The notes: generated by a model from the letters alone, not told the origin. Counted from the first letter of the stretch, positions 27,757-46,054 are shown. The stretch is DNA of 64,000 bases from Candidatus Omnitrophota bacterium (GCA_035403145.1 DAONEO010000004.1:46816-110815); one strand, 5' to 3'. A program made the numbers and translations.

Positions 27757-27965
27757 ACCCCGCATCTTCAATATGTTCCACAAGGTACCATGGTTACTTG
27801 TTGCAGGGCCAGCGCAAGGGTATTTCTTTTGAAGATGCCCCAAAATATGAGGAATCCCTTCAATCAAGTGGTAAGGCATATAGTCTTTTAAAGAAAAGAA
27901 TTCATACAAGTTTTGACCAATTACCGTCTTCACCTATGAATACTTTGGAGGTGCAGGGTGGATAA
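27753..27965 (+). CDS. Small 70-aa ORF translationally coupled between the KS-alpha and KS-beta genes, hypothetical
   Basis: Its ATG overlaps the KS-alpha TGA as ATGA, and its stop overlaps the KS-beta GTG start by 8 nt. No motif was recognised. Confidence 0.35.
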   Translation: MNPASSICSTRYHGYLLQGQRKGISFEDAPKYEESLQSSGKAYSLLKKRIHTSFDQLPSSPMNTLEVQGG

Positions 27966-29257: not shown

Positions 29258-30718
29258 ATGAAGATCTTATTTGTAATGCCTAAAGTCGGTGCCTGGGCAA
29301 CACACGGAAAACATCTCGGACCGAACCAGCTTTACGCGCATTGGGCAGCATATGTCCGCGAAAAAGGATATGCGGATGTTGAAGTCCTTGATTGTAAGGC
29401 CCTTGATATAGAGATGGACCAGATGGTTGAAACGGTTAAATCAAAAAAGCCCGATGTCATTGTTATGGGTGAGCAGTTACATTCATACGGCGGCTACGCA
29501 GTTGTCGCGCATTTTAACGATACGGCTAAACGCATTAAAGCGGCATATCCGGCGGGAACGATTGTTTTCGGCGGTCTCTGGTATTCTGCTATGCCGACCG
29601 AGACCCTTGCGGCAAACCCTGCGGTTGACTACGTGGTTATGGGCGAAGAAGAATCTTTTTACGATCTGATCAATGCCATTGATACAAAGAAGAACATGAA
29701 AGATGTCGCTGGGGTTACCAGCCGCATCGGCAGCGAGATTGTTATGGGACCGTACAAGCCTCTTTTAATGGATCTGGATTCTCTTCCGCTTCCGGCATAC
29801 GACCTTTTTCCGATGGATAAATACGTAGGGCATACGTTCTGGAAGCCGTTTGTAGAGTTGGTTACCAGCAGAGGTTGTCCTTCGGCATGTACGTTCTGTT
29901 ATGAATGGGATCAGTATGATCCCCGCAATCCCGGTGATTTCTTGAAATGGCGGTCGAAGAGCCCGGAACGCGTTATTGAAGAGTTGAACCTTTTGCATAA
30001 AAAATACGGTGTTAAAGTGGTGGTTTTGCAGGATGATAATTTTAACGTTAATCCCGCGCGCGTCAAGAAGTTTTGCGAATTGAAAAAAGCCAGCAATAAT
30101 CCGATCAAGTGGGTTTCGCTCGGACGTGCGGTGGACTGGATCAATTGCGAATCGATCCTGCCGCTTATGAAAGAAACGGGATTATTTACCGGTGTTTTCG
30201 GGATTGAAGTTACGACCCCCGAAGAGCTGAAGAAGATCGCTAAGGGTATTACCGTTGAGCAGATCATGAAGACGGTCGAAATTTTGCGTAAAAACAATAT
30301 CGCCGTTGTCGCCGATATCATGATGGGGTTTGATTATGACGATGAAGCGGTTATCAAACAGCGTTATGAATTCACCGATATGGTTGATCCGGATATTCTC
30401 TGGATCGGGTATGTTACGCCGGCACCCAACTCACCGATGTGGAAGATGGGGTTGAAGAAAAAATGGATCGATCCGACAAAGATCGATTTCGCGCGCTGGG
30501 ATTTCCTGCATCCGGTTATGCCGACAGACCACTTAACCATCGAAGACCTGGGCCGCCTGGGTTCTTGGTGTATGCGTGAATTCTTCTCAAAACCAGGCCG
30601 TATCAACCGTATTATGGAGACAGATTTCGATATATTGGCAAAACTTTGTTTCCAGGATGTTATGGCTGGTGTCGGCAAGTGGGAGGCAGGCGCCACAAAA
30701 GGCGAAGTTCATATTTGA
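29258..30718 (+). CDS. Cobalamin-binding (class B) radical SAM enzyme
   Basis: The N-terminal B12-binding domain reads MKILFVMPK...DVIVMGEQLHSYG. The radical SAM cluster motif is VTSRGCPSACTFCYE, a CxxxCxxC. Confidence 0.75.
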   Translation: MKILFVMPKVGAWATHGKHLGPNQLYAHWAAYVREKGYADVEVLDCKALDIEMDQMVETVKSKKPDVIVMGEQLHSYGGYAVVAHFNDTAKRIKAAYPAGTIVFGGLWYSAMPTETLAANPAVDYVVMGEEESFYDLINAIDTKKNMKDVAGVTSRIGSEIVMGPYKPLLMDLDSLPLPAYDLFPMDKYVGHTFWKPFVELVTSRGCPSACTFCYEWDQYDPRNPGDFLKWRSKSPERVIEELNLLHKKYGVKVVVLQDDNFNVNPARVKKFCELKKASNNPIKWVSLGRAVDWINCESILPLMKETGLFTGVFGIEVTTPEELKKIAKGITVEQIMKTVEILRKNNIAVVADIMMGFDYDDEAVIKQRYEFTDMVDPDILWIGYVTPAPNSPMWKMGLKKKWIDPTKIDFARWDFLHPVMPTDHLTIEDLGRLGSWCMREFFSKPGRINRIMETDFDILAKLCFQDVMAGVGKWEAGATKGEVHI

Positions 30719-32270: not shown

Positions 32271-32711
32271 ATGGGTCATACATGTAACTCAATTATCATA
32301 AACGCTCCGTATGAAAAAGTTTTTGATATTTCCAACGATATCCCCCGCTGGACCGAACTTTTTGGCGGCGAGTATAAAAAAGCGGAAATTATACGTAAAG
32401 AAGGCAATACGATTACGTTTCGTCTTACTGATGATGAAAATCAGTCCTGGGTATCATGGAGACTTCTTTTGAAAGATAAGAATTTAGCGTATGCCGAGCG
32501 CCAGGAGCCGAAATTTCCCTTCCGGTATATGAAAATTGTCTGGCTCTACACGCAGAAGCCGCAGGGTGTTGAATTGACCTGGATCCAGCATTTCGAGATG
32601 GATGAAAAAGCGAAATTCAACGATGAACAGGTTGAAGGGTTTATTAATAAACATTCCAAAGATAATTTGAAGATATTCAGGGATGCAATAGAGAAGGCTG
32701 CCCGGGAGTAA
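32271..32711 (+). CDS. SRPBCC-superfamily polyketide cyclase/aromatase-like protein (TcmN/Bet v1-like)
   Basis: The 146-aa protein begins ...CNSIIINAPYEKVFDISNDIPRWTELF, typical of the Polyketide_cyc2 fold. The assignment is by fold-level motif only. Confidence 0.55.
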   Translation: MGHTCNSIIINAPYEKVFDISNDIPRWTELFGGEYKKAEIIRKEGNTITFRLTDDENQSWVSWRLLLKDKNLAYAERQEPKFPFRYMKIVWLYTQKPQGVELTWIQHFEMDEKAKFNDEQVEGFINKHSKDNLKIFRDAIEKAARE

Positions 32712-32807: not shown

Positions 32808-33929
32808 ATGAATAAGCGAACATTTTTTCTACTCTGCCTTGAAGGCGCGTTGTTATCATTCAATGTTGCTGCTTCAGCGGCACTGGTTCCGTCAATTGCC
32901 GCAGAATTCGGGGTTTCGCAGTTTATCGCCGGCAGGATCATCTGGCTCTATATGCTTCCCTATGGTCTGGCCGCGCTTTTCTATGGCCCGCTTATCAGGG
33001 CGATTGACGCCAAGAAAGTGGAACTTGTTTGTCTGATCCTATTTTCATTGGCAAATCTGCTGGTGGGAGTTTCGAATAGTATCGGAATGCTTTTTGCGGG
33101 TAGACTGCTGATGGGAGTATTTGGCGCATCCGTTATTCCGTTGGGAATAATTCTTATCGGTCGGCATATAACGCCTCTTCGCCGCGGCAGGGCAGTCGGT
33201 ATTTTCTTCGGCGGCACGTTTAGTGCCTCTCTTGCGGGGCTTGTTTTAAGCGGTATTATACCCTGGCGTTTGATTTATATTGCTCCGGCAATTGCCGGGT
33301 TTATTCTTGTGATTTTTTTATGGATTTACCTGCCGAGTTTTCAGCAGGATGTTACGCGATTTAGTTGTAACTATCGTAAGGTATTTGCTAACGCGAACGT
33401 TGCGCGTGTATTTCTGTATATATTTCTTATCAGCATTTTTTATCACGGCGTACAGCAATGGCTGGCGGTGTATTTTTCAAAGAAATTCGGATTCAGCCAG
33501 TTTGTTATCAGTATGCTGGTTATGGCAACGAGTTTGAGCGGTATTTTCGGCGAAGTCATCGGTGGTTTTTGCGCCGATACGCTGGGCCGTATCAAGACCG
33601 CCAATATCGGCTCTTTGATTATGATTCTTACCGTTGCCGCGGTCCTTATGAAGCTGCCGCTTGCGGTGATTGGTATAGTGATGCTTGCCTGGGGATTCGG
33701 CTGGACATTGAATCACGCGGGAATTTCCACGATTTTAACTGATTTACCGCATGATCATCTGCATGAATCAGCGAGTTTAAACAGTAGCCTGCGCTTTATT
33801 GCCGGCGGTATAGGGGCTGCGTGGGGCGGATATTTGATGCAGTTCGATATTCATTTGGGTTTTATTGTGTTTGGTGTGTGTGTAGCCGGATTATTGGTTT
33901 GTACGAAGCCGTTACTGAAGAAGGCCTAG
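32808..33929 (+). CDS. MFS transporter
   Basis: Twelve TM segments are predicted, and GRLLMGVFGASVIPLG plus a ...RRGRAVGIFF loop motif after TM2 are MFS signatures. Confidence 0.75.
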   Translation: MNKRTFFLLCLEGALLSFNVAASAALVPSIAAEFGVSQFIAGRIIWLYMLPYGLAALFYGPLIRAIDAKKVELVCLILFSLANLLVGVSNSIGMLFAGRLLMGVFGASVIPLGIILIGRHITPLRRGRAVGIFFGGTFSASLAGLVLSGIIPWRLIYIAPAIAGFILVIFLWIYLPSFQQDVTRFSCNYRKVFANANVARVFLYIFLISIFYHGVQQWLAVYFSKKFGFSQFVISMLVMATSLSGIFGEVIGGFCADTLGRIKTANIGSLIMILTVAAVLMKLPLAVIGIVMLAWGFGWTLNHAGISTILTDLPHDHLHESASLNSSLRFIAGGIGAAWGGYLMQFDIHLGFIVFGVCVAGLLVCTKPLLKKA

Positions 33930-33946
33930 AAGAAAGGAAGATACGC

Positions 33947-34723
33947 ATGAGTATAGAATTAAAAGGTAAGATAGCGATTGTTACAGGCGCCAGCCGCGGG
34001 ATAGGAAAAGCTTTGGCATCAACGGTAGCAAGTATGGGCGCCAATGTTGTGATTGCCGCTCGTCAGGAAGGCCCTTTACAAGAAACCGCACAAGAGCTTA
34101 AAAATAAATACAAGGTTGAGGTCCTCCCGGTTGTGTGCGATGTTACGAAGCTGGAAGACCTGGAGAACCTGGTGAATCAGACAAAAAAGAAATTCGGCAA
34201 ACTTGATATTCTGATTAATAACGCAGGTGTTTCCAGCCAGTATCCTTTTGAGAAACAGCCGATCGAAGACATTGAAAAACTCGCATATACCAATTATCTT
34301 GGATATGTCCGGTTGATCCGTCTGGTGATCAATGATTTTATCGCCCAGAAATCGGGTGCTATCATTAATATGGTTTCAGGCTCAACTCTGTGCGATCCGC
34401 TTCCCAGGACGTTTGTTGTGTATAGCTCGCTGAAGGTTGGTTTGCGCGCCTTCTGTAAAGGACTTTTCTGGGAATTACGCGATCATGGTATTAAAATTAC
34501 CTCGCTTTTGCCCGGGGTTACCGACACCGATTTAACCGGTAAATTAAAAGAAGTTACCGGTGATACGTCGAGGCTGATGTCCACCGAAGCTATTGAAAAT
34601 GCGGTGCGTTTTGCATTGACGGTGCCGCACAATGTCTGCCCGCTCGAAATAGCCATTATTAATCAGCAGACGCCGTGGACAGCGCCGGTCATTCCGTTTA
34701 AGCAGGAGCATCCGGAGAAGTAA
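33947..34723 (+). CDS. SDR-family oxidoreductase (ketoreductase-like)
   Basis: KIAIVTGASRGIGKA is the TGxxxGxG motif, followed by NNAG and the catalytic YSSLK (YxxxK). The ORF track opens at 33821, but ATG 33947 follows a GAAAGGAAG RBS. Confidence 0.8.
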   Translation: MSIELKGKIAIVTGASRGIGKALASTVASMGANVVIAARQEGPLQETAQELKNKYKVEVLPVVCDVTKLEDLENLVNQTKKKFGKLDILINNAGVSSQYPFEKQPIEDIEKLAYTNYLGYVRLIRLVINDFIAQKSGAIINMVSGSTLCDPLPRTFVVYSSLKVGLRAFCKGLFWELRDHGIKITSLLPGVTDTDLTGKLKEVTGDTSRLMSTEAIENAVRFALTVPHNVCPLEIAIINQQTPWTAPVIPFKQEHPEK

Positions 34724-34820
34724 GGTTCCATGGTTTGCTGCGAGTCGTCTGGAGTGCGTTTTGAGTAAAAACAATCGGCCTGATCAGGGTACAAGCTATT
34801 CTCTAGCATGGAGGAGTCCA

Positions 34821-35429
34821 ATGAAAAAATTACTATTTGCGTTCAGTCTTGTTGTTGTATGTGCGGCATGGGCGTTTGCTGCTGAAAAGAGTGTTCAACT
34901 TGATGATTTTGAAGGGGTAATTTCCGGCGGTGCTGAGGGTACGGTTGATTTTGGCGCTGGTAATGGTTCGGCGGTAGAAGTAACGGCAACACCTGAACAG
35001 GCGCATGGCGGGAAGCAATCTTTGAAGGTTGTCTATGATGCGGTTTCCGGCGGATACATGTATATTGCCAAAGGTACAAAACTGGACGCCAAGAAAGCTG
35101 ATTGGAAGGTTAAGCCTGAGGATGTGAATTGGAAAGAATTTAACGCGATCTCTGTTTGGGTTTTTGGCGCTGATTCCAAAGAAACGGTGGCAATCGATGT
35201 GAAAGATAATGGCGGAGAAATTTGGCGCTCGACCTTTGTCGATGATTTTAAAGGATGGAAACAAATTGCGATTTTATTTAATGAGTTCAAGGCGCGCGAT
35301 GATTGGCAGCCGGATAGCGCGGATAAAAACGGCACGCTTGATTTTCCGGTCAGAAGTTACCAATTCGAACCGCTGACACCGGGCAAAGGTGTTTTATATT
35401 TCGACGATGTTGAGATAATTCAAAAATAG
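34821..35429 (+). CDS. Secreted beta-sandwich protein (CBM11/CIA30-like carbohydrate-binding-type domain)
   Basis: A signal peptide MKKLLFAFSLVVVCAAWAFAA is followed by LDDFEG...W...YFDDVEI, a pattern reminiscent of CIA30/CBM11 domains. A GGAGGAG RBS precedes the start. Confidence 0.4.
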   Translation: MKKLLFAFSLVVVCAAWAFAAEKSVQLDDFEGVISGGAEGTVDFGAGNGSAVEVTATPEQAHGGKQSLKVVYDAVSGGYMYIAKGTKLDAKKADWKVKPEDVNWKEFNAISVWVFGADSKETVAIDVKDNGGEIWRSTFVDDFKGWKQIAILFNEFKARDDWQPDSADKNGTLDFPVRSYQFEPLTPGKGVLYFDDVEIIQK

Positions 35430-35447
35430 CCGGAAGGGGAGACGACT

Positions 35448-35849
35448 ATGGCAAAAAAATGCGACTATAAGAATCTTCATAAGCGGTATCTGATATGGCT
35501 TTATAAAACCACCCAGGAACAGGTGGATACGGTAGAGCGGAAATTTTCCCAGCTTGAGATTGATGAGATGATTATCGAGCAGATCAAGAAGTTTGATAAA
35601 GAAAAGAAGCTTGAAACGTATAGTGATGAGTTTAAAACGTATATTGATAACAAGAAAAAGAAAGGGTTGGAGCTTAAATTCGACGGTCTTGAAGTAAAAC
35701 CGGAGTTCCAGTTCCTTGTATACAAGTTGGCTGCTATTGAGGTTTTGATTGTTAAGGAGTTTGGTGAAGTTGCGTTGCAGGAAATAAAATGTGCTTATGA
35801 AGAAGAAATGATCAGGCGGATTTTAGCTGAACGGGAAGAAAAGCGTTGA
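35448..35849 (+). CDS. Hypothetical protein
   Basis: A 133-aa charged helical protein with no recognised motif. It has an RBS and overlaps the next gene by 4 nt. Confidence 0.4.
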   Translation: MAKKCDYKNLHKRYLIWLYKTTQEQVDTVERKFSQLEIDEMIIEQIKKFDKEKKLETYSDEFKTYIDNKKKKGLELKFDGLEVKPEFQFLVYKLAAIEVLIVKEFGEVALQEIKCAYEEEMIRRILAEREEKR

Positions 35850-36763
35850 TGATCGTTGACGCGCACAGCCATTGGCTGCCGAATGAGATTATCACCAATG
35901 CCCATTTTTATCATACGGGCTGGGGTGATATTGAGGCTCAGGTCAAGATGATGGATGAGGCGGGGATTGCGCAGGCGGTTTTGTCGTATCCGACATCAGA
36001 TGCGCATCTGAAGCTTGGCGGTCTTGCGCAGGTCAGCACAATTTTTAATGATAACGTTGCTGCAATTATAAAACGATATCCGAAACGATTTATCGGCGCG
36101 GCGATTCTTCCGGTCGGGAATGCCGATATGATGCTTCGGGAGTGGTACCGGGCGCGTGATGTAGGCTTCCAGGCAATCTCTCTTGCCACCAGCTATGAGG
36201 GGAGATATCTTGACGATAAAGAATTCATCCCGCTTTATCAAGAAGCGCAGGCGCATTCAATACCCATCTTCGTGCATCCCCAGATTGTTAATCCGATCGG
36301 TTTTGAGCGGGTGCAGGATCCTTTATTGACCCCGGTGATCGAGTATGTTTTTGATACGACTATTTGTATCGGTAAATTGATGATGTCGGGAGTCCTTGAT
36401 GAGTATCAGGAAGTCAAATTTGTTTTTGCTTATTTCGGCGGGGCGATACCGTTTTTAGCGCATCGCTTTGACGCGACGTATCAAATGTTGCGCTCGATTA
36501 ATTTCGTGAAAGATCTCAGAGTTGACCCGACGGTATTGTTAAAACGCGTGTATGTTGATACCAGCGGTGATACAACACAGGCGAATTTAGAGGCGGCACG
36601 CGTATTATTTGGGACAAAACATCTTGTGTGGGGAAGCGACTGGCCTGCGAAAAAAAATATTGGAGGTTCCATCCAAGCGATCAGTGATTTGGATTTAACG
36701 CCGGAAGAGAAAGACGGGATATTAGGCGGGAATCTGATGCGGTTGTTTACGGATGGAGGGTAG
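35846..36763 (+). CDS. Amidohydrolase-2 family metal-dependent hydrolase/decarboxylase (ACMSD/LigI-like)
   Basis: MMIVDAHSHW starts with the HxH metal motif at the N-terminus. ...FVHP, ...HLVWGSDWP and the overall TIM-barrel pattern fit PF04909. Confidence 0.65.
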   Translation: MMIVDAHSHWLPNEIITNAHFYHTGWGDIEAQVKMMDEAGIAQAVLSYPTSDAHLKLGGLAQVSTIFNDNVAAIIKRYPKRFIGAAILPVGNADMMLREWYRARDVGFQAISLATSYEGRYLDDKEFIPLYQEAQAHSIPIFVHPQIVNPIGFERVQDPLLTPVIEYVFDTTICIGKLMMSGVLDEYQEVKFVFAYFGGAIPFLAHRFDATYQMLRSINFVKDLRVDPTVLLKRVYVDTSGDTTQANLEAARVLFGTKHLVWGSDWPAKKNIGGSIQAISDLDLTPEEKDGILGGNLMRLFTDGG

Positions 36764-36764
36764 A

Positions 36765-37493
36765 ATGCGTATGGGGAAGCGCATCATGTTAGGCAGTTGT
36801 TTGTTTTGGCTGGGGTTTATGAGTTGTGTTTTGGCGGAAGTTCCTACCTATAAAGGATTCCCCGTGTATCCGGACAGCTCTATAGATACGGTTGCACGAG
36901 AGGGCAATGATGAATTCACCACGAAAGAGGTATGTACAGCCGCGAATAAAGAGTCGAAGAACAAAGCTGCCGAGAAATATATAATGGATAATGCCGTAGC
37001 ATTGGGCTGGCGATTTATCCGCAAACAAGCTTATGAGTGCCCATGCCACGGGTTGGTTTTTGGCAAAGTCGATACGAAGGCCCATTACGTAGAAGTAATG
37101 TTTGAAGATGGCGGATTTGAAATAGACGATCCATTCCAAAAAAAGACTGTCCTTGATTTTGTAAAGCCTGTTGAGAATTCGATTAAATATAAATTCAGGG
37201 AGCATGGTTTACCGATATTGTATGAAGGCTTTCCTTTGGCATATAATACAGCAGATAGCTCTTTGTTTAATCGAATCAATACAGAAGAGGGAGTTGTTAT
37301 GGAGGCGTCTGCTGATTATAATGATCCCTCTGGCGTTCGATTCGATTATGATCTTCCCGAATTATATGGCTGGGAAAAAAAGGCATCTAGTGATTTTGTA
37401 TTCTCTGAAGCTACCTATACAAAGAATGGCGTGCGGGTGAAAACGTCTGTAAAAAATAGTAAGATTAGCATTGTTTTCTATAACCAGCCTTAA
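36765..37493 (+). CDS. Secreted protein, hypothetical
   Basis: A signal peptide MRMGKRIMLGSCLFWLGFMSCVLA is present, with no recognised domain. Confidence 0.4.
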   Translation: MRMGKRIMLGSCLFWLGFMSCVLAEVPTYKGFPVYPDSSIDTVAREGNDEFTTKEVCTAANKESKNKAAEKYIMDNAVALGWRFIRKQAYECPCHGLVFGKVDTKAHYVEVMFEDGGFEIDDPFQKKTVLDFVKPVENSIKYKFREHGLPILYEGFPLAYNTADSSLFNRINTEEGVVMEASADYNDPSGVRFDYDLPELYGWEKKASSDFVFSEATYTKNGVRVKTSVKNSKISIVFYNQP

Positions 37494-37628: not shown

Positions 37629-38378
37629 ATGCAAATGCAAAAAGATGTTCATATGACCGGAAAAGATTTGACAGCGATGGTGCAGCTGAGGCCGCAGGAT
37701 GTGGGTTCGTACGCGATCGTCCCCGGGCCGCGCGACAGACTGGATGTTCTCATGAAAAAGATCGAGAATCCGGTGCGTAATTTCTCTTTCATGGAATATA
37801 CGATGTATACCGGCACCTTCGAGGGAATCAAAGTGACGGGTATTAACGGCGGCCGGTTTTCGACGGATACTTCAATTACCTCGGAAGTTATGTGTAATGC
37901 CGGGATCAAGAATATCATCCGCATCGGTTCGTGCGGATCTCTTGATGAGAATATCCAAATCGGCGATTTGTTTATTGTAGATTCGGTTATCCGCGGTGAT
38001 GGAGTGACCCCGTATTACGTGAAACCGGATTTCAAAACTGTGGCCGATAAGAAAATATCGGATACCATGTTTGGCATAGCGCACGACATGGGATTAAAGG
38101 TGCACCGCGGTGTTGCCTGGACAACAGACGCTTTATTGCGTGAAACCCGGGAGATTGTCGAGGCAAAACGTACAGAAGGAGCCCAGGTTGTTGATATGGT
38201 TTCTTCAACGCTTTTAACGATTGCACAGACATATCATGTTAAAGCCGGCTCAATCCTGGCGGTGAGTGATAATGTTGTTACCGGTGAAATGGGATTTATG
38301 AATCCCCTGTATTACATGGCCGAGACGAATTTGATAAAAATAGCGCTTGAGACGGTTAAGAAACTGGAAGGCAAATAA
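37629..38378 (+). CDS. Purine/uridine nucleoside phosphorylase family (PNP_UDP_1) enzyme, candidate 5'-deoxyadenosine/MTA phosphorylase
   Basis: VPGPRDRLDVL and RIGSCGSL are motifs of the PNP/UDP/MTAP fold. An AAGGAGA RBS lies 8 nt before ATG 37629; the ORF opens at 37581. Confidence 0.6.
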   Translation: MQMQKDVHMTGKDLTAMVQLRPQDVGSYAIVPGPRDRLDVLMKKIENPVRNFSFMEYTMYTGTFEGIKVTGINGGRFSTDTSITSEVMCNAGIKNIIRIGSCGSLDENIQIGDLFIVDSVIRGDGVTPYYVKPDFKTVADKKISDTMFGIAHDMGLKVHRGVAWTTDALLRETREIVEAKRTEGAQVVDMVSSTLLTIAQTYHVKAGSILAVSDNVVTGEMGFMNPLYYMAETNLIKIALETVKKLEGK

Positions 38379-38477
38379 ATGGTCGATGGACGATAGCCAA
38401 TGGACGATGGTAAAGCCTAAATACAATCAAGGGTTTTAACAATTGACTATTGACCATAGACTATAGACTGCGAAGCT

Positions 38478-39416
38478 ATGAAGTATTCCCCATTATTTTG
38501 GCCCATTGAATATAAAGACGGCGTTATCCGCATTCTTGACGAGACACTGCTGCCGCATACCGTGCAGTATATTGAAGCGCGGACGTATCAGGATTGTTGT
38601 AACGCCATCAAGGAGATGAAAACGCGCGCCGTGGGGCAGGTGATCCTGGTTTTTTATACCTTTCTGATGGTGTTGGAACAGAATGCGAGTAAAAAGGATT
38701 TGTCCGGGATCATTGCGCACGTTGCCGAAGCAATGAACGCGACTCGGCCGACGCTTTCTTTCAAATACCTGACGGATATGATTCTTGGATGGCACAAAAA
38801 AGGAGCGCCGCTTGAGCAGAGCATTGAAGGATTCCTTGAGATGCTCAAGGCAAAACGTATTCAACAAGCCGAGGATGCCAGTAATCTCTTAAGTGACAAA
38901 GATGTTGTTTTAACACATTGCAATATGAGCGGTCTTATGCCTTTGATCGCGGAGTTTGCCGAAGAGCATGGCAAGGCGATAAGTTTCTTTGTCACGGAAA
39001 CACGTCCGTATCTGCAAGGCTCGCGTTTGACTGCCTGGGAATTACATGAGGCGGGGTACCCGGTGACAATTATTGCCGATAATATGGTGGCAGCGGTGAT
39101 GGCTGAGGGAAAGATTTCGAAAGTTATCGTTGGTGCTGACCACTTAACGCAGAATGGCGATATTGCAAATAAAATCGGCACCTATCAAATTGCGCTCTTA
39201 GCAAAGCATTTCCACATACCTTTTTATGTTATTTGTCCGCCGCCATCGTCATTAAAAACCGGCAAGGATATCCATATCGAGATCCGCCCGGATACAGAGT
39301 TACTCGAATATCAGGGGATTTGTCTTGCTCCTAAAGGGTGCAAAGGGTATTATCCTGCGTTTGATGTGACGCCGAATGATTTAATTACCAAGCATATTTA
39401 TCTGGAGGTGCGTTAG
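38478..39416 (+). CDS. mtnA: eIF-2B alpha/beta/delta-related sugar-phosphate isomerase (MtnA-like 5-(methylthio/deoxy)ribose-1-phosphate isomerase)
   Basis: GADHLTQNGDIANKIGTYQIALLAKHFHIPFYVICP is the conserved MtnA/e2b2 C-terminal motif. Confidence 0.7.
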   Translation: MKYSPLFWPIEYKDGVIRILDETLLPHTVQYIEARTYQDCCNAIKEMKTRAVGQVILVFYTFLMVLEQNASKKDLSGIIAHVAEAMNATRPTLSFKYLTDMILGWHKKGAPLEQSIEGFLEMLKAKRIQQAEDASNLLSDKDVVLTHCNMSGLMPLIAEFAEEHGKAISFFVTETRPYLQGSRLTAWELHEAGYPVTIIADNMVAAVMAEGKISKVIVGADHLTQNGDIANKIGTYQIALLAKHFHIPFYVICPPPSSLKTGKDIHIEIRPDTELLEYQGICLAPKGCKGYYPAFDVTPNDLITKHIYLEVR

Positions 39417-40418
39417 ATGTATGACCATCAGAGGAAGATGAAAGAAGAGATCATAAAGATCGGCCGGCGCCTCTATGCGCAAGGCTTAGCAGTGGCTAAA
39501 TCGGGGAATTTAAGCTGTCGTTTAGATGCCGAACATATTTTAATCACCGCGACAGGTACCCGTTTAGGTGAATTGGATTATGACGATATTGTAAAAGTGA
39601 ATGTTTCTTCCGGAGAATCGGCTGACGGGAAGAAACCGAGTTCTGAATTGCCGTTACATGGTCTGATTTATAAGAATTTTCCTGCCAAAGCGGTGATTCA
39701 TGCGCATCCGCCGTTGACCAACGGCTATTTTGCAGTACGGGATACGCTGGAGGCGCTGACTTTTGAAACGAAATTTTATATAGGTAATGTGCCGTGCGTT
39801 ACGCAAGAGACCCCGACGGTTACCAAGCCAGACCAGGTGATCGATGCTTTGAAAGCGAATAAGCTGGTGGTGTTGAAGAACCATGGTATTGTTGCCATGG
39901 CGGATAAATTCGACGATGCTTTGGAGTTAGTGGAAGCGCTGGAAGAAGCGGTTAAGACCGCGGCGCTTGCGCATATTTTTTCGCAAGGCGCTTCTGCTGC
40001 CGCACAATCGCAGCGTATCGAGGGGGTATCTTCAACCGAGAGTGCATACGACATGTTCTCACGCGAGCATATTCAGGCGATTGTTGACCTGGTTAATAAA
40101 GATACGTTCATCGCACAAAAAGGCCAGGAGCTTGATCTGACGGTGCAGCTTGCTATAAAAATGGATGGCGCGCAAGACGCATTTAAATTCAATTTTGAAA
40201 AAGGCAGAATTATCCGGCTTGATTTCGATGATAACGCGCCGTTTGTGATTTCAGCGCCTGCTGCAACGTGGGAGCAGGTGTTTCATGGCAAGCTCGATTC
40301 ATTTGTCGCGGTAACGCAAGGGAAAATGAATTTGAAGGGCGAGCTCGGCAAGCTTTCCCGCTGGTATGTGCCCTTTACCAGGCTCTTTGAACTTTTTAAG
40401 CAGGTAAAGATTAAGTAA
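39417..40418 (+). CDS. Class II aldolase/adducin-family protein (MtnB / MTRu-1-P aldolase-like) fused to a C-terminal SCP2-like domain
   Basis: The N-terminal ~200 aa carry ...AKSGNLSCRLD... and VIHAHPP of the class II aldolase fold. The C-terminal ~120 aa end in ...AVTQGKMNLKGELGKLSRW, an SCP2 sterol-carrier signature. Confidence 0.6.
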   Translation: MYDHQRKMKEEIIKIGRRLYAQGLAVAKSGNLSCRLDAEHILITATGTRLGELDYDDIVKVNVSSGESADGKKPSSELPLHGLIYKNFPAKAVIHAHPPLTNGYFAVRDTLEALTFETKFYIGNVPCVTQETPTVTKPDQVIDALKANKLVVLKNHGIVAMADKFDDALELVEALEEAVKTAALAHIFSQGASAAAQSQRIEGVSSTESAYDMFSREHIQAIVDLVNKDTFIAQKGQELDLTVQLAIKMDGAQDAFKFNFEKGRIIRLDFDDNAPFVISAPAATWEQVFHGKLDSFVAVTQGKMNLKGELGKLSRWYVPFTRLFELFKQVKIK

Positions 40419-40440
40419 TAGATGCGGGTTCCACGGTCAC

Positions 40441-40475
40441 ACGTCACAAGTAAGAACTTTTTGTACTTGTGACGT
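40441..40475. promoter_or_regulatory. Perfect 12-bp inverted repeat ACGTCACAAGTA-N11-TACTTGTGACGT, a candidate operator
   Basis: Read directly from the sequence. It lies 30 nt upstream of the ALDH start and contains TCACA/TGTGA half-sites. Confidence 0.4.
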
Positions 40476-40505
40476 TGCAACCCTGCCAATGTTCAGGATC
40501 TCATT

Positions 40506-41990
40506 ATGAGTATTTATTCGCCTTACATTAACGGCCAATTTAAAGAAACCAGCCAGAAGCGCGATGTGATTGATCCATCGACGGGCGAAGTTTTTGCGCA
40601 GGCGGGGCTTGCTTCACGCGAAGATGTTGAAGAGGCGCTTATTGCGGCGCGTCTTGCTTTTGATTACGGCGAATGGCCGCGCCTGCCGCTTTCCGAGAGA
40701 AAAATATATATCCAGAAAATTTGTGATGGTATCCTTGCAAAGGCGGGAGAGCTAGCGGCGCTTGAAACCCGGAATACAGGTAAGCCGATCAAGGAATCGA
40801 CCTTCATGGATATTCCCTCTGCCGCAAGGACCTTTCGGCACTTTGCCGATCATCTGGAAGAATATGTAAAGCCGGAGATTCTCAATGTGGAAAATGCGCA
40901 GTCGACACTCCTGCGTGAGCCTCGTGGTGTTGTCGTGCTTATCGTCCCCTGGAATTATCCGCTTCTTATCGCCTCATGGAAACTTGCTTCTGCTTTGGCA
41001 GCAGGTAATACGGTTATTCTCAAACCTTCCAGCCTAACACCCCTCACCGTATTGGAATTGGCAAAGATACTTCATGCGGCAGGTTTGCCCAAAGGCGTCG
41101 TTAATATTGTAAATGCCGACGGATCGTTGATGAGCGAGACGCTTTGTAAAGATAGTCGCGTTGATATGATTTCTTTTACCGGCAGCAATGAAGTCGGGAA
41201 AAAGATCATTGAAAATTCGGCAGCTTCTGCAAAAAAGCTTATTTTGGAGCTTGGCGGAAAATCAGCTTCAATTGTTTGTAAAGATGCGGATCTGGAACTA
41301 GCGGTCAATGGCGCGCTTTGTTCGGCATTTTTGAATGGCGGGCAGATGTGTACGCAGATGTCGCGCATTTTTGTTGATGAAAGTATTTATGATGATTTCG
41401 TCGGCGAATTTGTTGCAAAGGCCAAGAGAATAAAGGTGGGGCCGGGGGCTGATTATGAAACGCAGATCGGTCCGCTTGTTTCTCGAGCGCAACAGGAGCG
41501 CTGCAAAGATTTTGTTGATAAAGCAAAGCAGGAAGGTGCGCGGGTTTTGTGCGGCGGAGGAATTCCCCGTCATAATGGTTTTTATTTTGAGCCGACGGTT
41601 TTAGCTGGGGTCACGAATAAAATGGGGATCTTTCATGAAGAAGTTTTTGGGCCTGTTGTTTGTATCGGTACATTTTCTTCTGTTGATGATGCGGTTATGC
41701 AGGTAAATGATAGCGATTTTGGGCTTGCGGCGGCTCTTTGGTCGCTCGATACGAAGAACGCACCTGCAATTGCCAGCCGGCTTAATGTCGGCACCGTATG
41801 GATTAATACCTATGGCATGTTTTATCCGGAATTGCCCTATGGCGGATGCAAGCAGAGCGGTTTTGGAAAAGAGCTGGGGAGGGAAGGATTTTTAGAATAC
41901 ACGAGGTTAAAGAATATCTTTCTTGACCGCACGCAGGGCGCTAAGCCGCTGGTCAATTATTGGTATGGTTTATCGCACGGAGGTGTTTAA
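40506..41990 (+). CDS. NAD(P)-dependent aldehyde dehydrogenase
   Basis: ELGGKSASIV is the Glu-active-site region, and FLNGGQMCTQMSRIFV contains the catalytic Cys. Confidence 0.85.
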   Translation: MSIYSPYINGQFKETSQKRDVIDPSTGEVFAQAGLASREDVEEALIAARLAFDYGEWPRLPLSERKIYIQKICDGILAKAGELAALETRNTGKPIKESTFMDIPSAARTFRHFADHLEEYVKPEILNVENAQSTLLREPRGVVVLIVPWNYPLLIASWKLASALAAGNTVILKPSSLTPLTVLELAKILHAAGLPKGVVNIVNADGSLMSETLCKDSRVDMISFTGSNEVGKKIIENSAASAKKLILELGGKSASIVCKDADLELAVNGALCSAFLNGGQMCTQMSRIFVDESIYDDFVGEFVAKAKRIKVGPGADYETQIGPLVSRAQQERCKDFVDKAKQEGARVLCGGGIPRHNGFYFEPTVLAGVTNKMGIFHEEVFGPVVCIGTFSSVDDAVMQVNDSDFGLAAALWSLDTKNAPAIASRLNVGTVWINTYGMFYPELPYGGCKQSGFGKELGREGFLEYTRLKNIFLDRTQGAKPLVNYWYGLSHGGV

Positions 41991-43498
41991 TGGACGTTAT
42001 TAAACTTTTGCAGAAACGCGCGGAAGAGTTTCCTTCAAAACCGGCTGTGATTGCCCGGGGGAATCCTGTTACATTTTCCCAATTGAGGGATACTGTTTTC
42101 AAACTTGCCGATAGCTTGGAAAAACTCGGAGTTAAAAAAGGCGATGCGGTCGCAATTTATCTTCCCGGTTGCCCGGAATATATGTATAGCTATTTGGCGG
42201 TCTGGTGCCTGGGCGCGGTTGCCGTCCCCCTTGATTATATGTTAACCGGCGATGAGCTTATTTCCTGTTTGGGCCATTCCGAAGCAGTACTCTTGATCGC
42301 CCGGCCAAAGCCGATCGTATCATTTGATACGATTAAAAGTCAAAGCCCCGCGCTTAAAGATATCGTTGTTTGCCAGGCGCACGAATCATCGCTGCCGTTG
42401 TTTGAATCGCTTCTGGAACATGGCACGCCGGCACTACGTGTGTCATCTGTATCGGAACGGGACCGCGCGATCATTTTCTATACGTCCGGCACAACAGGGA
42501 AACCCAAGGGGGTTATCATTAATTATCGGCAGTTGGGAGCGCCTCCTGAATCAATGGGTTTTTTTGTGGGTGATCTTTCAAGCCAGGATGTGGCGTTGTG
42601 CGCGTTGCCGTTTTCGCATCTCGGCGGGCTTATCTATATCCTTAATTGTATTGCTTTCGGGATGACGTTTGTTTTGATGGAGCGTTTTGTCCCGGCGGAG
42701 TTTTTGAAAAATATTCAGCAATATAAAGTAACCTGTTTCTGGATTGTTCCCTCAATGTACTATGCGTTTTTACAGCTGAAGGAATTTGAAAGTATTGGTT
42801 TGTCGAGTTTGCGGTGGATGGTTACTTTTGGTGCTTCCAATTCTCCTGATGCGTTGCGCCGCTTCCAGCAGTATTGCCCGAAGGCGCATTTATTGAACGG
42901 CTGGGGTTTAACTGAGACAAACGCGCCGACGACGGTTATCCCCCGCGGTTCAAACAAGATCGAGAGTGTTGGCAGGCCCGCGCCCTGGATTGATGTTAAG
43001 ATTTTTGACGATGCCGATAAACCGCTTCCGGCAGGCAGTGTCGGAGAGGTGGTGGTAAAAAGCTGGGTCGTTACCCAAGGATATTTTAAGGATCCGGAAC
43101 TTACCGCCGAGACGATTAAAAACGGCTGGTTCCACACCGGTGATTTGGGAAGATTGGATGCCGAAGGGCTCTTATATATTGTCGGCCGGAAAAAAGAGAT
43201 GATTAAGGTTTCGGGTGAAATTGTTTTCGAGCCGGAAGTTGAGGCTGCAATCCATAAACATCCGGCAATCGCGGAAGTCGCAGTCATCGGTGTGCCGGAT
43301 ACCCTGCGGGGAGAGATCCCGAAAGCGTTTATTGTTGTGAAACCTCAGGAAAATACGGACGGTGAAGACCTGCGGCAGTTCTGCCGGCAACACTTGGCGC
43401 ATTTTAAAGTTCCTCACTATTTTGAATTTGTCACAGAACTCCCTAAAAACCGCACCGGTAAGATCGATAAAGAACTGTTGCGGCGGAAAGGGCTCTAG
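41990..43498 (+). CDS. AMP-dependent synthetase/ligase (acyl- or aryl-CoA ligase)
   Basis: IFYTSGTTGKPKGV is the AMP-binding motif I. YGLTET and ...GWFHTGDLG follow. A GGAGGTG RBS precedes the start, and the ATG overlaps the ALDH stop as TAATG. The ORF opens at 41960. Confidence 0.85.
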   Translation: MDVIKLLQKRAEEFPSKPAVIARGNPVTFSQLRDTVFKLADSLEKLGVKKGDAVAIYLPGCPEYMYSYLAVWCLGAVAVPLDYMLTGDELISCLGHSEAVLLIARPKPIVSFDTIKSQSPALKDIVVCQAHESSLPLFESLLEHGTPALRVSSVSERDRAIIFYTSGTTGKPKGVIINYRQLGAPPESMGFFVGDLSSQDVALCALPFSHLGGLIYILNCIAFGMTFVLMERFVPAEFLKNIQQYKVTCFWIVPSMYYAFLQLKEFESIGLSSLRWMVTFGASNSPDALRRFQQYCPKAHLLNGWGLTETNAPTTVIPRGSNKIESVGRPAPWIDVKIFDDADKPLPAGSVGEVVVKSWVVTQGYFKDPELTAETIKNGWFHTGDLGRLDAEGLLYIVGRKKEMIKVSGEIVFEPEVEAAIHKHPAIAEVAVIGVPDTLRGEIPKAFIVVKPQENTDGEDLRQFCRQHLAHFKVPHYFEFVTELPKNRTGKIDKELLRRKGL

Positions 43499-43642: not shown

Positions 43643-44962
43643 TTGCGAAGTCACGTGAAAGAAGGCAGAGTTAAACAGAGCTTGCGGGTTTCTTTCTGGG
43701 ACGGAGTTTTTTACGCCTGCATGACCGGGCTTGTTTCTGATTATTTGACTCCGTATGCGCTTGCCTTGAAGGCGACTCCCGGCGATATCGGCATTCTTGC
43801 TGCGGCTCCCAGTTTAGTCGCAACGCTGACTCAATCCAAAGCCCCTGATTTGACCGAGCGTTTCAAAAGTCGCACGACCACGATAAATCTCTTTGTGTTC
43901 ATGCAGGCGCTGATGCTGATACCGATCATGGCTATTCCGTATTTGTTCAAAGCAAATCCCGTTATTGCCCTCATTATTTTTGCGACACTCTTTACCGCGT
44001 TCGGCGGTTTGGCGAATCCCCCCTGGGCGGGGTTAATGGCGGAGTATATCCCGGCGCGGAAACGGGGAGCATATTTTGGCTGGCGCAATAAAATTACCGG
44101 TATTGTTACCGTCGCGGCGTCGTTTGTTTCCGGATTTATTTTGTTCCGTTTGACGCATAATATCTTCGTTGCTTTTCTGACAATTCTCATCTTGGCTTTC
44201 ATCTGTCGTCTTATTTCATGGGGGTTCCTTACGCGGATGTACGAGCCTCGTTTTGCGCCGGCGCGGGAAGATTATTTCAGTATTTGGGATTTTATTAAGC
44301 GTATGCGTCAAACAAATTTCGGCAAGTTTGTTTTTTTTGCCGCCAGTTTTAATTTTTGTGTGCAGATTGCCGCTCCGTTCTTTCCCGTTTTCATGCTCAA
44401 GGATTTGCAGTTTAATTATTTGACCTATACCCTTTTAACGATCACCGTGACAGCGGCCCAGATAATTGCCATTGACCGCTGGGGGATGCTTGCCGACAGA
44501 ACCGGTAACATCAAAGTTCTCAAGGTTTGTTCCCTGCTTATTGCTTTTAACCCGCTCTTTTGGATCATCAATCGGCATCCGGCATATCTTATTTTTGCCC
44601 AGATTGCCGCCGGATTTTCGTGGGCGGGGTTTAATATCTGCGCAACTAATTTCATTTATGATGCGGTAACCCCGCAAAAGCGGGTGCGGTGCATCGCTTA
44701 TTTCAACGTATTGGTCGGGTTAGGAATATTCCTGGGCGCTTTGTGCGGCGGACTGCTTGCTACGCGTATGCCGATCCTCTTTGGATACCGCCTGCTTTCG
44801 CTTTTTTTGCTTGCCAGTATTATGCGTTTTGCCGTTATTGCGATTATGGCGCCCCGGATACACGAGGTTCGGCGTGCAGCGGAACCGATGAGGAAACGGG
44901 ATTTATTTTACAGCGTTATCGGCATCAAGCCGTTAACCGAAGGACAGAGCCTTAAAGAATAA
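43643..44962 (+). CDS. MFS transporter (second)
   Basis: Twelve TM helices are predicted. It has a TTG or GTG start, with GAGGGT upstream. Confidence 0.6.
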   Translation: MRSHVKEGRVKQSLRVSFWDGVFYACMTGLVSDYLTPYALALKATPGDIGILAAAPSLVATLTQSKAPDLTERFKSRTTTINLFVFMQALMLIPIMAIPYLFKANPVIALIIFATLFTAFGGLANPPWAGLMAEYIPARKRGAYFGWRNKITGIVTVAASFVSGFILFRLTHNIFVAFLTILILAFICRLISWGFLTRMYEPRFAPAREDYFSIWDFIKRMRQTNFGKFVFFAASFNFCVQIAAPFFPVFMLKDLQFNYLTYTLLTITVTAAQIIAIDRWGMLADRTGNIKVLKVCSLLIAFNPLFWIINRHPAYLIFAQIAAGFSWAGFNICATNFIYDAVTPQKRVRCIAYFNVLVGLGIFLGALCGGLLATRMPILFGYRLLSLFLLASIMRFAVIAIMAPRIHEVRRAAEPMRKRDLFYSVIGIKPLTEGQSLKE

Positions 44963-45010: not shown

Positions 45011-46054
45011 ATGCGGGATATAAAAGAACTTTCACAGTCACAGCTGGAAGCGATTGTTTTGGGTTGGGGATTAAAGCGTTTTTACGCCGGGGAGATTTTT
45101 CAATGGATCTTTCAAAAAGGTATTGTTGACTTTTCGAAAATGAGCAATCTGCCGCGCCACCTTCGTGAAAAATTACTCGCTGAATTCCGGATTACCAGCC
45201 TTTCCATACAAGAAGTTGTTACTTCAAAAGACGGAACGGAGAAATTGCTCCTGGAGCTTTCCGATGGGAATGTTGTAGAGGCGGTCATTATTCCTACCGC
45301 TGCGCGGGTGACAATCTGTATTTCTTCGCAGGTTGGGTGTAAATTCGCCTGCCGCTTTTGCGCCAGCGGTCTGAAGGGATTTCAGCGTGATTTAACTGTC
45401 GCAGAAATTATCGATGAAGTGCTGCTTCTTAAAAATCGTCTTAATGTGCAAAAGCGGAATTTGACCCATGTGGTTTTTATGGGGACAGGAGAGCCGCTTG
45501 ATAATTACGATACTGTTTTGCAAGCTGTGAGAATTTTAAACGATGAGTCCGGTTTTCATATCGGTGCCCGGCGCATCACGATTTCCACGTGTGGAATTAT
45601 CCCTGGTATTAAGCGGTTGTCGGAAGAGGGGATACAGGTTGAGCTTTCCATTTCTTTGCATGCTGCGGATGAGTTGACGCGGGAGAAACTTATGCCGGTT
45701 AATCATAAATACCCGCTGAAAGATTTAATTGAAACATGCAAAGAGTATGTTGAACGGACTAATCGCCAAATCACCTTTGAATATATACTCTTGCAAGGTC
45801 TTAATGCTGATTTGCAAACTGCTCAAAAATTGGGTATACTATTACAGGGTGTACGGCTTGCCAAGGTGAATCTTATCCCCGCAAACTATATCCCCGAGTT
45901 GGGCTTGAAACCGCCTGCGCATGAAGAAATTCATGCGTTTAAAGAAGTCCTTCTTCAGGCAGGTATTCATGTTACGGTAAGGGCTTCGCGCGGCGAGGAT
46001 ATTGAAGCCGCCTGCGGGCAATTGAGGTTGCGTCATGAAACAGGAAAATCGTAA
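45011..46054 (+). CDS. rlmN: 23S rRNA (adenine2503-C2)/tRNA methyltransferase RlmN (radical SAM)
   Basis: ICISSQVGCKFACRFCASG is the RlmN/Cfr-type CxxxCxxC context, and the C-terminus ...EAACGQL is as in RlmN. Confidence 0.85.
   Translation: MRDIKELSQSQLEAIVLGWGLKRFYAGEIFQWIFQKGIVDFSKMSNLPRHLREKLLAEFRITSLSIQEVVTSKDGTEKLLLELSDGNVVEAVIIPTAARVTICISSQVGCKFACRFCASGLKGFQRDLTVAEIIDEVLLLKNRLNVQKRNLTHVVFMGTGEPLDNYDTVLQAVRILNDESGFHIGARRITISTCGIIPGIKRLSEEGIQVELSISLHAADELTREKLMPVNHKYPLKDLIETCKEYVERTNRQITFEYILLQGLNADLQTAQKLGILLQGVRLAKVNLIPANYIPELGLKPPAHEEIHAFKEVLLQAGIHVTVRASRGEDIEAACGQLRLRHETGKS

Follow-up and report, generated by a model that had tools for sequence, protein, structure and literature searches.

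The subject of this analysis is a group of five consecutive genes at positions 37629-43498 of a 64,000-nucleotide stretch of DNA from Candidatus Omnitrophota bacterium (GCA_035403145.1 DAONEO010000004.1:46816-110815), referred to below as the window, and the radical S-adenosylmethionine (SAM) and polyketide synthase (PKS) genes beside them. The window is about 46% GC, and nearly all of its genes are on the plus strand. Families of its open reading frames (ORFs) were assigned by Pfam and NCBIfam profile searches, read against the model cut-offs. An original prediction, made from the nucleotide sequence alone, had placed a purine nucleoside phosphorylase (PNP)-family enzyme, an MtnA-like isomerase, a class II aldolase, an aldehyde dehydrogenase (ALDH) and a CoA ligase in a row, and the profile searches agree. 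The interval is exact, since five same-strand ORFs run from the start codon of the phosphorylase to the stop codon of the ligase:

37629..38378, plus strand: NP-I (PNP_UDP_1) phosphorylase-like protein, 249 amino acids (aa); Pfam E=4.9e-33; alternative TTG start at 37581
38478..39416, plus strand: MtnA-like (IF-2B family) aldose-1-phosphate/ketose-1-phosphate isomerase, shortened, 312 aa; Pfam E=2e-56
39417..40418, plus strand: class II aldolase domain (residues ~1-190), linker and SCP2 domain (~210-333); Pfam Aldolase_II E=4.5e-38
40506..41990, plus strand: NAD(P)+ aldehyde dehydrogenase, non-acylating, 494 aa; Pfam Aldedh E=1.3e-163
41990..43498, plus strand: ANL-family acyl-CoA (or acyl-ACP, acyl carrier protein) ligase, 502 aa; AMP-binding and AMP-binding_C domains; ORF opens at TTG 41960

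The order of these genes parallels a series of reactions that runs from phosphorolysis through aldose-ketose isomerisation, aldol cleavage and aldehyde oxidation to thioester activation. The three sugar-enzyme genes (37629-40418) are adjacent and co-oriented. Pfam and NCBIfam searches of the window ORFs found no kinase encoded with the module, and the annotated window ORFs include no ribose-1-phosphate kinase or phosphatase of the pentose-bisphosphate route. Genes for MtnC, MtnD, MtnW and MtnX are absent from the window, as had been predicted for the first three.

Relatives of the module were collected in a scan of metagenome contigs, which yielded 306 relatives in 80 loci, and window proteins were then placed on these loci by tblastn. 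Loci are designated by L and a number, and adjacency counts refer to loci with enough flanking sequence to judge. The divergent lineages, L108, L109, L110 and others, came from a 50%-identity representative library. A contig scan that used the aldolase alone gave only four loci. The window sequence itself is also present on metagenome contigs JGI 3300009694 and ENA ERZ27257423.

The best NCBIfam match of the phosphorylase is the uridine phosphorylase model TIGR01718 (112 bits, cut-off 280). It reaches 79-90 bits with models of DeoD (79 with TIGR00107, cut-off 232), 42 bits with the HpnG model and 25.8 bits with the MTAP model TIGR01694 (cut-off 274.85), and the closest solved structures are uridine phosphorylases and hexameric PNPs (DeoD). 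Alignment with E. coli DeoD, Udp and MtnN reveals that Arg24, Arg87, Ser/Thr90 and the purine-type general acid Asp204 (in the motif VSDN) are retained; the roles of the DeoD-type residues have been described (PMC6193948). An N-terminal His, akin to the His4/His8 that contacts the 5'-OH, is conserved. The trans-subunit Arg43 is replaced by Met and the ribose-binding Glu181 by Val/Ile (VDMVSS in the window), Arg217 is not conserved, and the Udp insertion with Gln166/Arg168, and Arg223, are absent. Identical substitutions of Arg43 and Glu181 occur in the module-linked phosphorylases of L099, L108, L109 and L110, and these shared changes therefore define a PNP subfamily. Judged by its scores and residues, the window enzyme is a divergent hexameric DeoD/Udp-like protein of a distinct subfamily, neither an MTAP, a uridine phosphorylase nor a standard DeoD. 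Our best guess is that its substrate is an adenine or purine nucleoside whose sugar environment is unusual. Phosphorolysis is favoured because Arg24 and Arg87 are retained and no kinase is present.

The isomerase falls below the MtnA models (252 bits on PRK05720, cut-off 271; 239 on TIGR00512, cut-off 279) and above the eIF-2B_rel cut-off (202, cut-off 186). Canonical MtnA/DrdI proteins score 450-510 bits, the window isomerase, at 239-252, about half of that. Its catalytic Cys (THCN) and Asp (VGADH) and the signature ETRPYLQGSRLTAWEL are conserved, and it is 39% identical to a Bacillus DrdI-type isomerase. The MtnA of extraintestinal pathogenic E. coli (ExPEC) was unusable as a reference, as the gene is disrupted in that record. 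The window protein lacks a helix of 15 residues, ~20 residues at the C-terminus and, directly behind the catalytic Cys, a loop of 7 residues. An extra ORF of 141-172 aa lies between the isomerase and aldolase genes in L108 (9583-10008), L109 (9568-10008) and L110 (9361-9879). It has a weak IF-2B match in two of these three divergent lineages and is absent in Omnitrophota, whose isomerase is C-terminally short.

The aldolase is fused to a C-terminal SCP2 domain (PF02036; 22.2 bits, cut-off 21.3), which the original prediction had overlooked. Precomputed PF02036 matches are present in many aldolase homologues, and the domain is kept on the aldolase across 31% to 100% identity. An hhalign comparison with human SCP2 gave E=0.0018, in register with the motif GK..P....F..GK.K..G; a comparison with E. 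coli UbiT detected no similarity. In the AlphaFold2 (AF2) model (pLDDT 79) a disordered linker (191-207) precedes an alpha/beta C-domain with the order a-a-b-b-b-b-a-a-b-a, and the N-domain superposes on YgbL, FucA and DrdA with TM values of 0.76-0.78. The top 50 matches of a whole-chain Foldseek search are all of the aldolase fold, so that this search gives the SCP2 fold no independent structural confirmation. The linker and SCP2 domain replace the C-terminal tail that closes the aldehyde pocket of FucA.

Invariant residues of the aldolase domain include the Zn ligands His95, His97 and His156, Glu77, and the phosphate site for dihydroxyacetone phosphate (DHAP), Asn31, Thr46-Gly47 and Ser75-Ser76. 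The catalytic Glu is Glu73 in FucA and Glu76 in DrdA (PMC6079011). The comparison with Ald2/DrdA and MtnB that had been proposed with the original prediction was made with annotated records of E. coli FucA, ExPEC Ald2 (mtnK-mtnA-ald2 locus), Bacillus DrdA and a Haloarcula aldolase, and with the MtnB proteins of B. velezensis and K. pneumoniae. Both MtnB references have a 10-12-residue insertion and an EMxK motif, and the Omnitrophota aldolases have neither; they also lack the Tyr at FucA position 113 that is common to FucA, Ald2, DrdA and the Haloarcula aldolase, and have Phe116-Glu117 instead. Scores are below cut-off on PRK06833 (DrdA-type; 72, cut-off 264, with Bacillus DrdA scoring 404), TIGR01086 (FucA; 52, cut-off 400) and TIGR03328 (MtnB; 67.5, cut-off 137). 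The nearest solved structures were uninformative as a guide to class, with YgbL, an Aquifex MtnB-like protein, DrdA and FucA all at 45-67 bits. The Omnitrophota aldolases form a separate clade, because they carry Phe-Glu, have no insertion and are only 23-29% identical to every reference. Aldol cleavage is proposed because the DHAP and Zn sites are intact and an ALDH gene follows, not on the ground of family membership. Canonical methionine salvage, which the original prediction had named as the alternative, is unlikely because the window has no MtnC/D/W/X and the aldolase lacks the MtnB insertion and EMxK motif.

Matches to the aldolase in a tblastn search of plasmids are all ~32% identical. 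The closest relative found in a cultured organism, at 33% identity, is encoded in L097 (1393-5819; Brevibacillus laterosporus NZ_CP011076.1), where the gene order is NupC nucleoside transporter, MtnA, class II aldolase. This aldolase has 295 aa, reaches no family cut-off and has a Glu at the position equivalent to that of the Omnitrophota proteins (LPES).

The translation of the ALDH shows the catalytic Glu (ELGGKS) and Cys (GQMC), and its nearest solved structures are betaine-, phenylacet- and aminobutyr-/aminoaldehyde dehydrogenases. The ligase scores 439 bits on NCBIfam PRK06187 (cut-off 476) and has visible ligase motifs. Its nearest structures are FadD5, FadD13, feruloyl-CoA synthetase, 4CL and MenE, and not acetyl-CoA synthetase. 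To recover acetaldehyde with a non-acylating ALDH and then a ligase that spends ATP is costly, and the pair makes more sense if the acid is wanted as a building block. Both the SCP2 fusion and the kinship of the ligase to FadD, 4CL and MenE argue against plain acetaldehyde and acetate as the intended intermediates.

The radical SAM biosynthetic cluster to which the original prediction had linked the module is real. A ketosynthase (KS), a partner resembling a chain length factor (CLF), a B12-binding radical SAM enzyme, an ACP, cyclases and a ketoreductase (KR) are encoded nearby:

24740-25756, plus strand: ApbA/ketopantoate-reductase-like oxidoreductase (KPR; Pfam, NCBIfam), upstream edge of the cluster
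25759-26352, plus strand: tandem TIGR04076-family protein with two repeats and CPDGG motifs, directly upstream of KS
26494-27756, plus strand: KS, with ketoacyl-synt N and C domains and an intact Cys-His-His triad
27958-29184, plus strand: CLF-like KS partner, catalytically dead, with ketoacyl-synt N and C domains
29258..30718, plus strand: class B (B12-binding) radical SAM enzyme; Pfam B12-binding and Radical_SAM; CPSACTFC (CxxxCxxC)
30813-31049, plus strand: ACP (Pfam)
31063-31860, plus strand: PF04199 cyclase (Pfam)
31860-32177, plus strand: cupin (Pfam)
32271-32711, plus strand: SRPBCC polyketide cyclase (Pfam)
first gene of the block 32808..37493, plus strand: major facilitator superfamily (MFS) transporter (Pfam)
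33899-34723, plus strand: short-chain dehydrogenase/reductase (SDR) family KR (Pfam)
34821-35429, plus strand: secreted CBM_11-like protein, with an N-terminal signal peptide in the translation
between the CBM_11-like and Amidohydro_2 genes in 32808..37493, plus strand: conserved 133-aa protein
35849-36763, plus strand: Amidohydro_2 decarboxylase-like protein (Pfam)
36765-37493, plus strand: secreted 242-aa protein with a signal peptide, poorly conserved between loci
43643..44962, plus strand: second MFS transporter (Pfam MFS_1), not found in other loci, probable downstream edge
45011-46054, plus strand: RlmN, housekeeping, above the equivalog cut-off (390, cut-off 290)
further downstream: GDSL esterase, sensor kinases and leucyl-tRNA synthetase (LeuRS; 59793-62186)

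Of the components of a type II PKS, a KS with its triad, a dead partner, an ACP, a KR and cyclases of the SRPBCC and PF04199 families are encoded here. The KS, however, passes the FabF subfamily cut-off (449, cut-off 387). Its partner has Arg (Lys in some relatives), Asp and Asn at the triad positions, and the Gln usual in a CLF is absent. This Gln normally primes type II PKSs by decarboxylation of malonyl groups, and an externally supplied primer would fit because the dead partner lacks it. The B12-radical SAM enzyme matches BchE best among NCBIfam models (198 bits, far below cut-off) and reaches no equivalog cut-off; a PDB search gave only weak matches to AprD4, TokK and CysS. It is likely to be the source of the module's nucleoside. 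The TIGR04076 protein also lies upstream of the KS in L084, where it is 78% conserved. A scan for promoters and terminators found no intergenic terminator between the module and the PKS genes, with counts near the shuffle expectation. The two signal-peptide proteins (34821-35429 and 36765-37493) are odd for a cytoplasmic biosynthetic pathway.

Two other genes of the window encode radical SAM enzymes, which are a second and a third source of 5'-deoxyadenosine. One of them, with a SPASM domain, lies ~15 kb upstream of the cluster and overlaps the beginning of a gene for a class I SAM methyltransferase (9577-11734); the other is that of RlmN.

There are more than 1,000 relatives of the aldolase-SCP2 fusion, and those that are named all derive from metagenome-assembled genomes (MAGs) of Candidatus Omnitrophota. 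The ~20-kb cluster is syntenic in dozens of Omnitrophota contigs, including ones of 1.19 Mb, 646 kb and 1.55 Mb. The arrangement of the module genes is far from random, as an MtnA-like gene is directly upstream of the aldolase gene in 59 of 59 loci and a PNP gene lies upstream in 37 of 45. The ALDH gene follows the aldolase in 65 loci, a ligase gene is present in 37, and the ACP, PF04199 cyclase and SRPBCC genes are syntenic in ~30. Median identities to the window are 82% for the PNP and the KR, 78% for the B12-radical SAM enzyme, 77% for the SRPBCC protein and 76% for the KS, as compared with 72% for LeuRS and 57% for RlmN. Several cluster proteins are thus more conserved than LeuRS, and therefore purifying selection is at least as strong as that on a tRNA synthetase, which is atypical for an optional secondary-metabolite cluster. 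In Omnitrophota the cluster is lineage-wide and strongly conserved beside housekeeping genes, not a sporadic secondary-metabolite cluster. Because it is phylum-wide and several of its proteins exceed LeuRS in conservation, its product would be an important metabolite (such as a cofactor, quinone-like compound or lipid) and not an optional antibiotic; the pattern suggests that this product is essential.

The original prediction had called a link between by-product salvage and a radical SAM biosynthetic cluster unusual. The divergent lineages make that link stronger than could be judged from the window. In L108, which lies on a 3.36-Mb contig and whose aldolase is 40% identical to that of the window, the gene set of the cluster is kept and its order changed, to ligase, PNP, MtnA, the small IF-2B-like ORF, aldolase-SCP2, ALDH, B12-radical SAM, two further genes, KPR, KS, CLF, ACP, cyclase, SRPBCC and MFS, orthologous at 38-66%. 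The ligase gene has moved upstream of the PNP gene. Identities to the window are 55% (ligase), 61% (PNP), 43% (MtnA), 40% (aldolase) and 43% (ALDH) within the module, and 53% (B12-radical SAM), 51% (KPR), 66% (KS), 60% (CLF), 49% (cyclase) and 63% (SRPBCC) in the remainder of the cluster. The order in L109 is B12-radical SAM, PNP, MtnA, one further gene, aldolase-SCP2 and ALDH, with no KS gene within 10 kb. A phosphopantetheinyl transferase gene directly follows the ALDH gene in L099. The B12-radical SAM gene adjoins the module in L099, L108 and L109. Overall, the most constant partners of the three sugar-enzyme genes are those of the ALDH and the B12-radical SAM enzyme.

Genes for 2-oxoacid:ferredoxin oxidoreductases follow the aldolase-SCP2 gene in two loci, a POR gamma gene in L010 (9180-9719) and genes for gamma, delta, alpha and beta subunits in L101 (11110-13997); ALDH and ligase genes are absent at that position. 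A 350-aa gene upstream of the aldolase gene in L101 was considered as a relative of MtnA and ruled out.

On the enzyme families, the conserved catalytic residues and the conserved gene neighbourhood, we read the five genes with moderate confidence as a nucleoside-to-acyl module that works by the chemistry of the DHAP shunt and is dedicated to the B12-radical SAM and type II PKS-like system encoded in the same cluster. The NP-I enzyme would use phosphate to cleave an adenine-type 5'-deoxy (5'-substituted) nucleoside, set free as the radical SAM enzyme uses SAM, and so give a 5-substituted ribose-1-phosphate. The 1-phosphate would have to come from phosphorolysis because no kinase is present. 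The MtnA-like isomerase would convert the product to the corresponding ribulose-1-phosphate, and the Zn-dependent class II aldolase would cleave this to DHAP and an aldehyde, X-CH2-CHO. The SCP2 domain would take the place of the C-terminal lid of FucA over the aldehyde side of the active site. The ALDH would then oxidise X-CH2-CHO to X-CH2-COOH, and the ANL ligase would activate the acid as a thioester for the KS/CLF-like/ACP machinery, whose partner subunit lacks the self-priming Gln. We infer which way the flux runs, that the first step is phosphorolysis and not hydrolysis, what X is, and that the thioester passes to the PKS. The default is X = H, with 5'-deoxyadenosine giving an acetyl unit; all class B radical SAM enzymes known so far yield free 5'-deoxyadenosine. 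A bulkier, lipophilic X is a serious possibility. Four features hint at it: the SCP2 domain, a PNP that has lost contacts to sugar and phosphate, an isomerase with deleted loops, and the family to which the ligase belongs.

If this interpretation is correct, the DHAP shunt can be recruited beyond waste disposal as a fixed biosynthetic component that is tied to a single radical SAM enzyme and a polyketide-type synthase. Three enzyme subfamilies can now also be recognised by their features: an NP-I phosphorylase that lacks Glu181 and Arg43, an MtnA of reduced length, and an aldolase fused to SCP2.

The match to the DHAP shunt, as originally predicted, holds in part. As in the shunt of R. rubrum, ExPEC E. 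coli and Bacillus thuringiensis, adjacent genes provide three reaction types that lead from a nucleoside through a sugar-1-phosphate and a ketose to DHAP and an aldehyde, and the Cys and Asp of the isomerase and the Zn, Glu and DHAP sites of the aldolase are conserved. The families, their order and the reaction sequence fit, but none of the three sugar enzymes is canonical. The window phosphorylase is a DeoD/Udp-like NP-I protein, whereas the shunt uses MtnP, or MtnN with MtnK. The isomerase has lost length, and the aldolase, fused to SCP2 and without the Tyr of Ald2 and DrdA, shares 25-26% identity with them. Unlike the shunt, the window module has an ALDH and a ligase appended and is embedded in a radical SAM/PKS cluster.

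Several observations weigh against the proposed module. None of the three sugar enzymes attains the cut-off of a characterised family. The substrate of the PNP, and even its use of phosphate, are uncertain because Arg43 and Glu181 are lost. An aldolase-fold protein without Tyr113 could alternatively be an epimerase, decarboxylase or dehydratase. Synteny within Omnitrophota is weak evidence by itself because it includes RlmN and LeuRS too, and many of the loci are metagenome contigs, some of them near-duplicates, so that the counts overstate the number of independent observations. L110 (labelled Syntrophaceae) has PNP, MtnA, one further gene and aldolase-SCP2 behind an LpxL-like acyltransferase gene, with no radical SAM, ALDH or PKS gene nearby. 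L010, L101 and L111 have the aldolase-SCP2 gene without the isomerase gene. One Omnitrophota variant keeps the PKS, isomerase, aldolase and ALDH genes, and PNP and ligase are not in the cluster. In five loci, L028 (8158-8970), L026, L050, L051 and L062, the PNP slot holds a gene that resembles class IV aminotransferases (BCAT/ADC-lyase family, no cut-off reached) and the ligase gene is missing; the slot is empty in L084, L086 and L090.

The main rival, which we consider unlikely, is housekeeping disposal. The three sugar enzymes and the ALDH would generally remove 5'-deoxyadenosine or methylthioadenosine (MTA) to give DHAP and acetate or (methylthio)acetate, the proximity of the PKS genes would be inherited synteny, and the ligase would belong to the PKS. 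Stand-alone clusters of a kinase or a phosphorylase, plus an isomerase and an aldolase, are widespread (PMC6079011), and one occurs in Bacillus (L098). Disposal would fit the three genes found alone among housekeeping genes in L110, the extension of synteny in Omnitrophota to RlmN, GDSL and LeuRS, the joint loss of PNP and ligase from one variant of the cluster, and the high conservation of the PNP, as expected of a core function. It does not explain why the full gene set is re-associated in the rearranged L108 or why the B12-radical SAM gene abuts the module in L109. The SCP2 domain, kept at such divergence, would have no role with acetaldehyde or methylthioacetaldehyde, and a non-acylating ALDH with an ATP-consuming FadD-like ligase is expensive for the salvage of acetaldehyde.

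A second rival takes the bulkier X further. The radical SAM enzyme would place the 5'-deoxyadenosyl group on a lipophilic acceptor, the PNP would remove adenine, and the isomerase and aldolase would trim the ribose to leave acceptor-CH2-CHO, which would be oxidised and activated for cyclisation or extension. HpnH and MqnE attach the 5'-deoxyadenosyl radical to an acceptor, and HpnG and MqnB remove the adenine. The window resembles these hopanoid and futalosine systems in that a radical SAM gene is clustered with one for a PNP_UDP_1 enzyme and the presence of a lipid-binding domain points to a lipophilic substrate; the futalosine route carries ribose carbons into its product. The SCP2 domain in place of the aldehyde-side lid of the aldolase, the loss of Glu181 and Arg43 from the PNP and of loops by the catalytic Cys of the isomerase in every lineage examined, the kinship of the ligase to fatty-acyl, aryl and MenE-type ligases, and the position of the B12-radical SAM gene as that most constantly beside the module are all consistent with such an adduct. 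However, the radical SAM enzyme of the window is of the unrelated, B12-binding class B. It is weakly like BchE, HpnJ and methylases and unlike HpnH and MqnE, and no B12-binding radical SAM enzyme is known to adenosylate its substrate. Trimming of the ribose by an isomerase and aldolase is not known in those systems, the match of the PNP to the HpnG model is only 42 bits, and the arguments about pockets are drawn from sequence. An adduct of this kind strikes us as quite doubtful. Equally speculative is the extension in which the ribose of SAM would be a two-carbon donor, with intermediate-CH2-CHO becoming the primer or cyclisation substrate of the type II PKS-like system and the product being an essential aromatic or lipid cofactor of Omnitrophota.

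In an everyday catabolism of nucleosides or sugars, with no link to SAM, a uridine or purine nucleoside phosphorylase would supply ribose-1-phosphate, which would be isomerised and split into DHAP and glycolaldehyde, or a fuculose-type 6-deoxy sugar would be cleaved. The best profile and PDB matches of the PNP are indeed uridine phosphorylases and DeoD, its N-terminal His is conserved as in enzymes that contact the 5'-OH, and the aldolase has weak matches to the halophile ribulose-1-phosphate aldolase and FucA models. But the original prediction had looked for a uridine- or purine-specific phosphorylase and an aldolase of the fuculose-phosphate group as the marks of such catabolism. The PNP lacks the uridine-specific residues (the Udp insertion with Gln166/Arg168, and Arg223) and misses all nucleoside phosphorylase cut-offs widely. 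The aldolase stands apart from fuculose-phosphate aldolases, being 25% identical to FucA and without Tyr113. Neither a ribose-1-phosphate kinase nor a phosphatase was found in the window, and the conserved partners are the radical SAM enzyme, KS, ACP and cyclases, not sugar transporters or kinases. Catabolism of this type is very unlikely.

It is highly improbable that the aldolase-fold protein is an MtnB-type dehydratase, an epimerase or a decarboxylase that releases no aldehyde. Phe116-Glu117 does replace the Tyr, Bacillus MtnB also has Phe there with the MtnB Glu a few residues on, and the N-terminal half of the protein scores alike on MtnB and aldolase models. MtnB models align over that half only, however, the 10-12-residue insertion and EMxK are missing, no MtnC/D/W/X is encoded in the window, and the ALDH gene follows in as many as 65 loci.

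An organofluorine pathway, from 5'-fluoro-5'-deoxyadenosine through fluoroacetaldehyde and fluoroacetate to a fluoroacetyl thioester as PKS primer, is scarcely credible, since no cluster ORF matches the fluorinase families PF01887/PF20257 (DUF62), a fluorinase tblastn search over 1.23 Mb of related loci was empty, a search for a fluoride riboswitch was negative, crcB is absent from the window itself, and CrcB exports fluoride. The series PNP, isomerase, aldolase and ALDH is the post-fluorinase route of the fluoroacetate pathway, and the window shares with Streptomyces cattleya the four-step order after the halogenase, including the ALDH, with DUF190/fluoride genes near in some relatives. Unlike that pathway, no fluorinase homologue was detected in the clusters, the PNP belongs to another subfamily than FlB, and the hosts are anaerobic and uncultured. 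A resemblance to the fluoroacetate pathway has been noted before (PMC6079011). A CrcB and DUF190 gene pair lies directly upstream of the PNP gene, between it and the Amidohydro_2 gene, in 13 of 34 PNP-bearing loci that are scattered over the aldolase tree. The pair was seen in L007 (7529-8246), L017, L030, L031, L036, L039, L058, L059, L063, L074, L078, L081, L082 and L083, and their CrcB proteins share 60-78% identity with the L017 copy that served as query. We give this association little weight. The secreted 242-aa protein upstream of the PNP carries a signal peptide and is no candidate for a fluorinase.

Returning to the proposed nucleoside-to-acyl module, its PKS-like partner resembles non-actinobacterial type II PKS or 'ladderane-like' clusters in having a KS and dead partner, an ACP, a KR, and SRPBCC and PF04199 cyclases. 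Earlier surveys list KS-CLF pairs for Candidatus Omnitrophica (PMC10132072) and 'ladderane'-type clusters for Omnitrophota MAGs (PMC9902471). Those surveys report no product, nucleoside module or phylum-wide conservation, and the partner KS of the window cluster has Arg/Lys and not Gln at the active-site position. The main paper on Omnitrophota genomics mentions neither polyketides nor methylthioadenosine (PMC10066038). A literature search on Omnitrophota polyketides and on MtnA, aldolase, ALDH and polyketide together found neither the cluster nor the fusion of aldolase and SCP2 described, nor any DHAP-shunt module linked with a PKS.

The remainder of the window consists of housekeeping genes. 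A search for RNA elements, including the fluoride riboswitch, returned tRNAs only. Two minus-strand tRNA genes (58062-58144 and 58665-58737) lie amid the otherwise plus-strand region, and an ORF for an IS200-like Y1 transposase is present near the end of the window (62313-62963).

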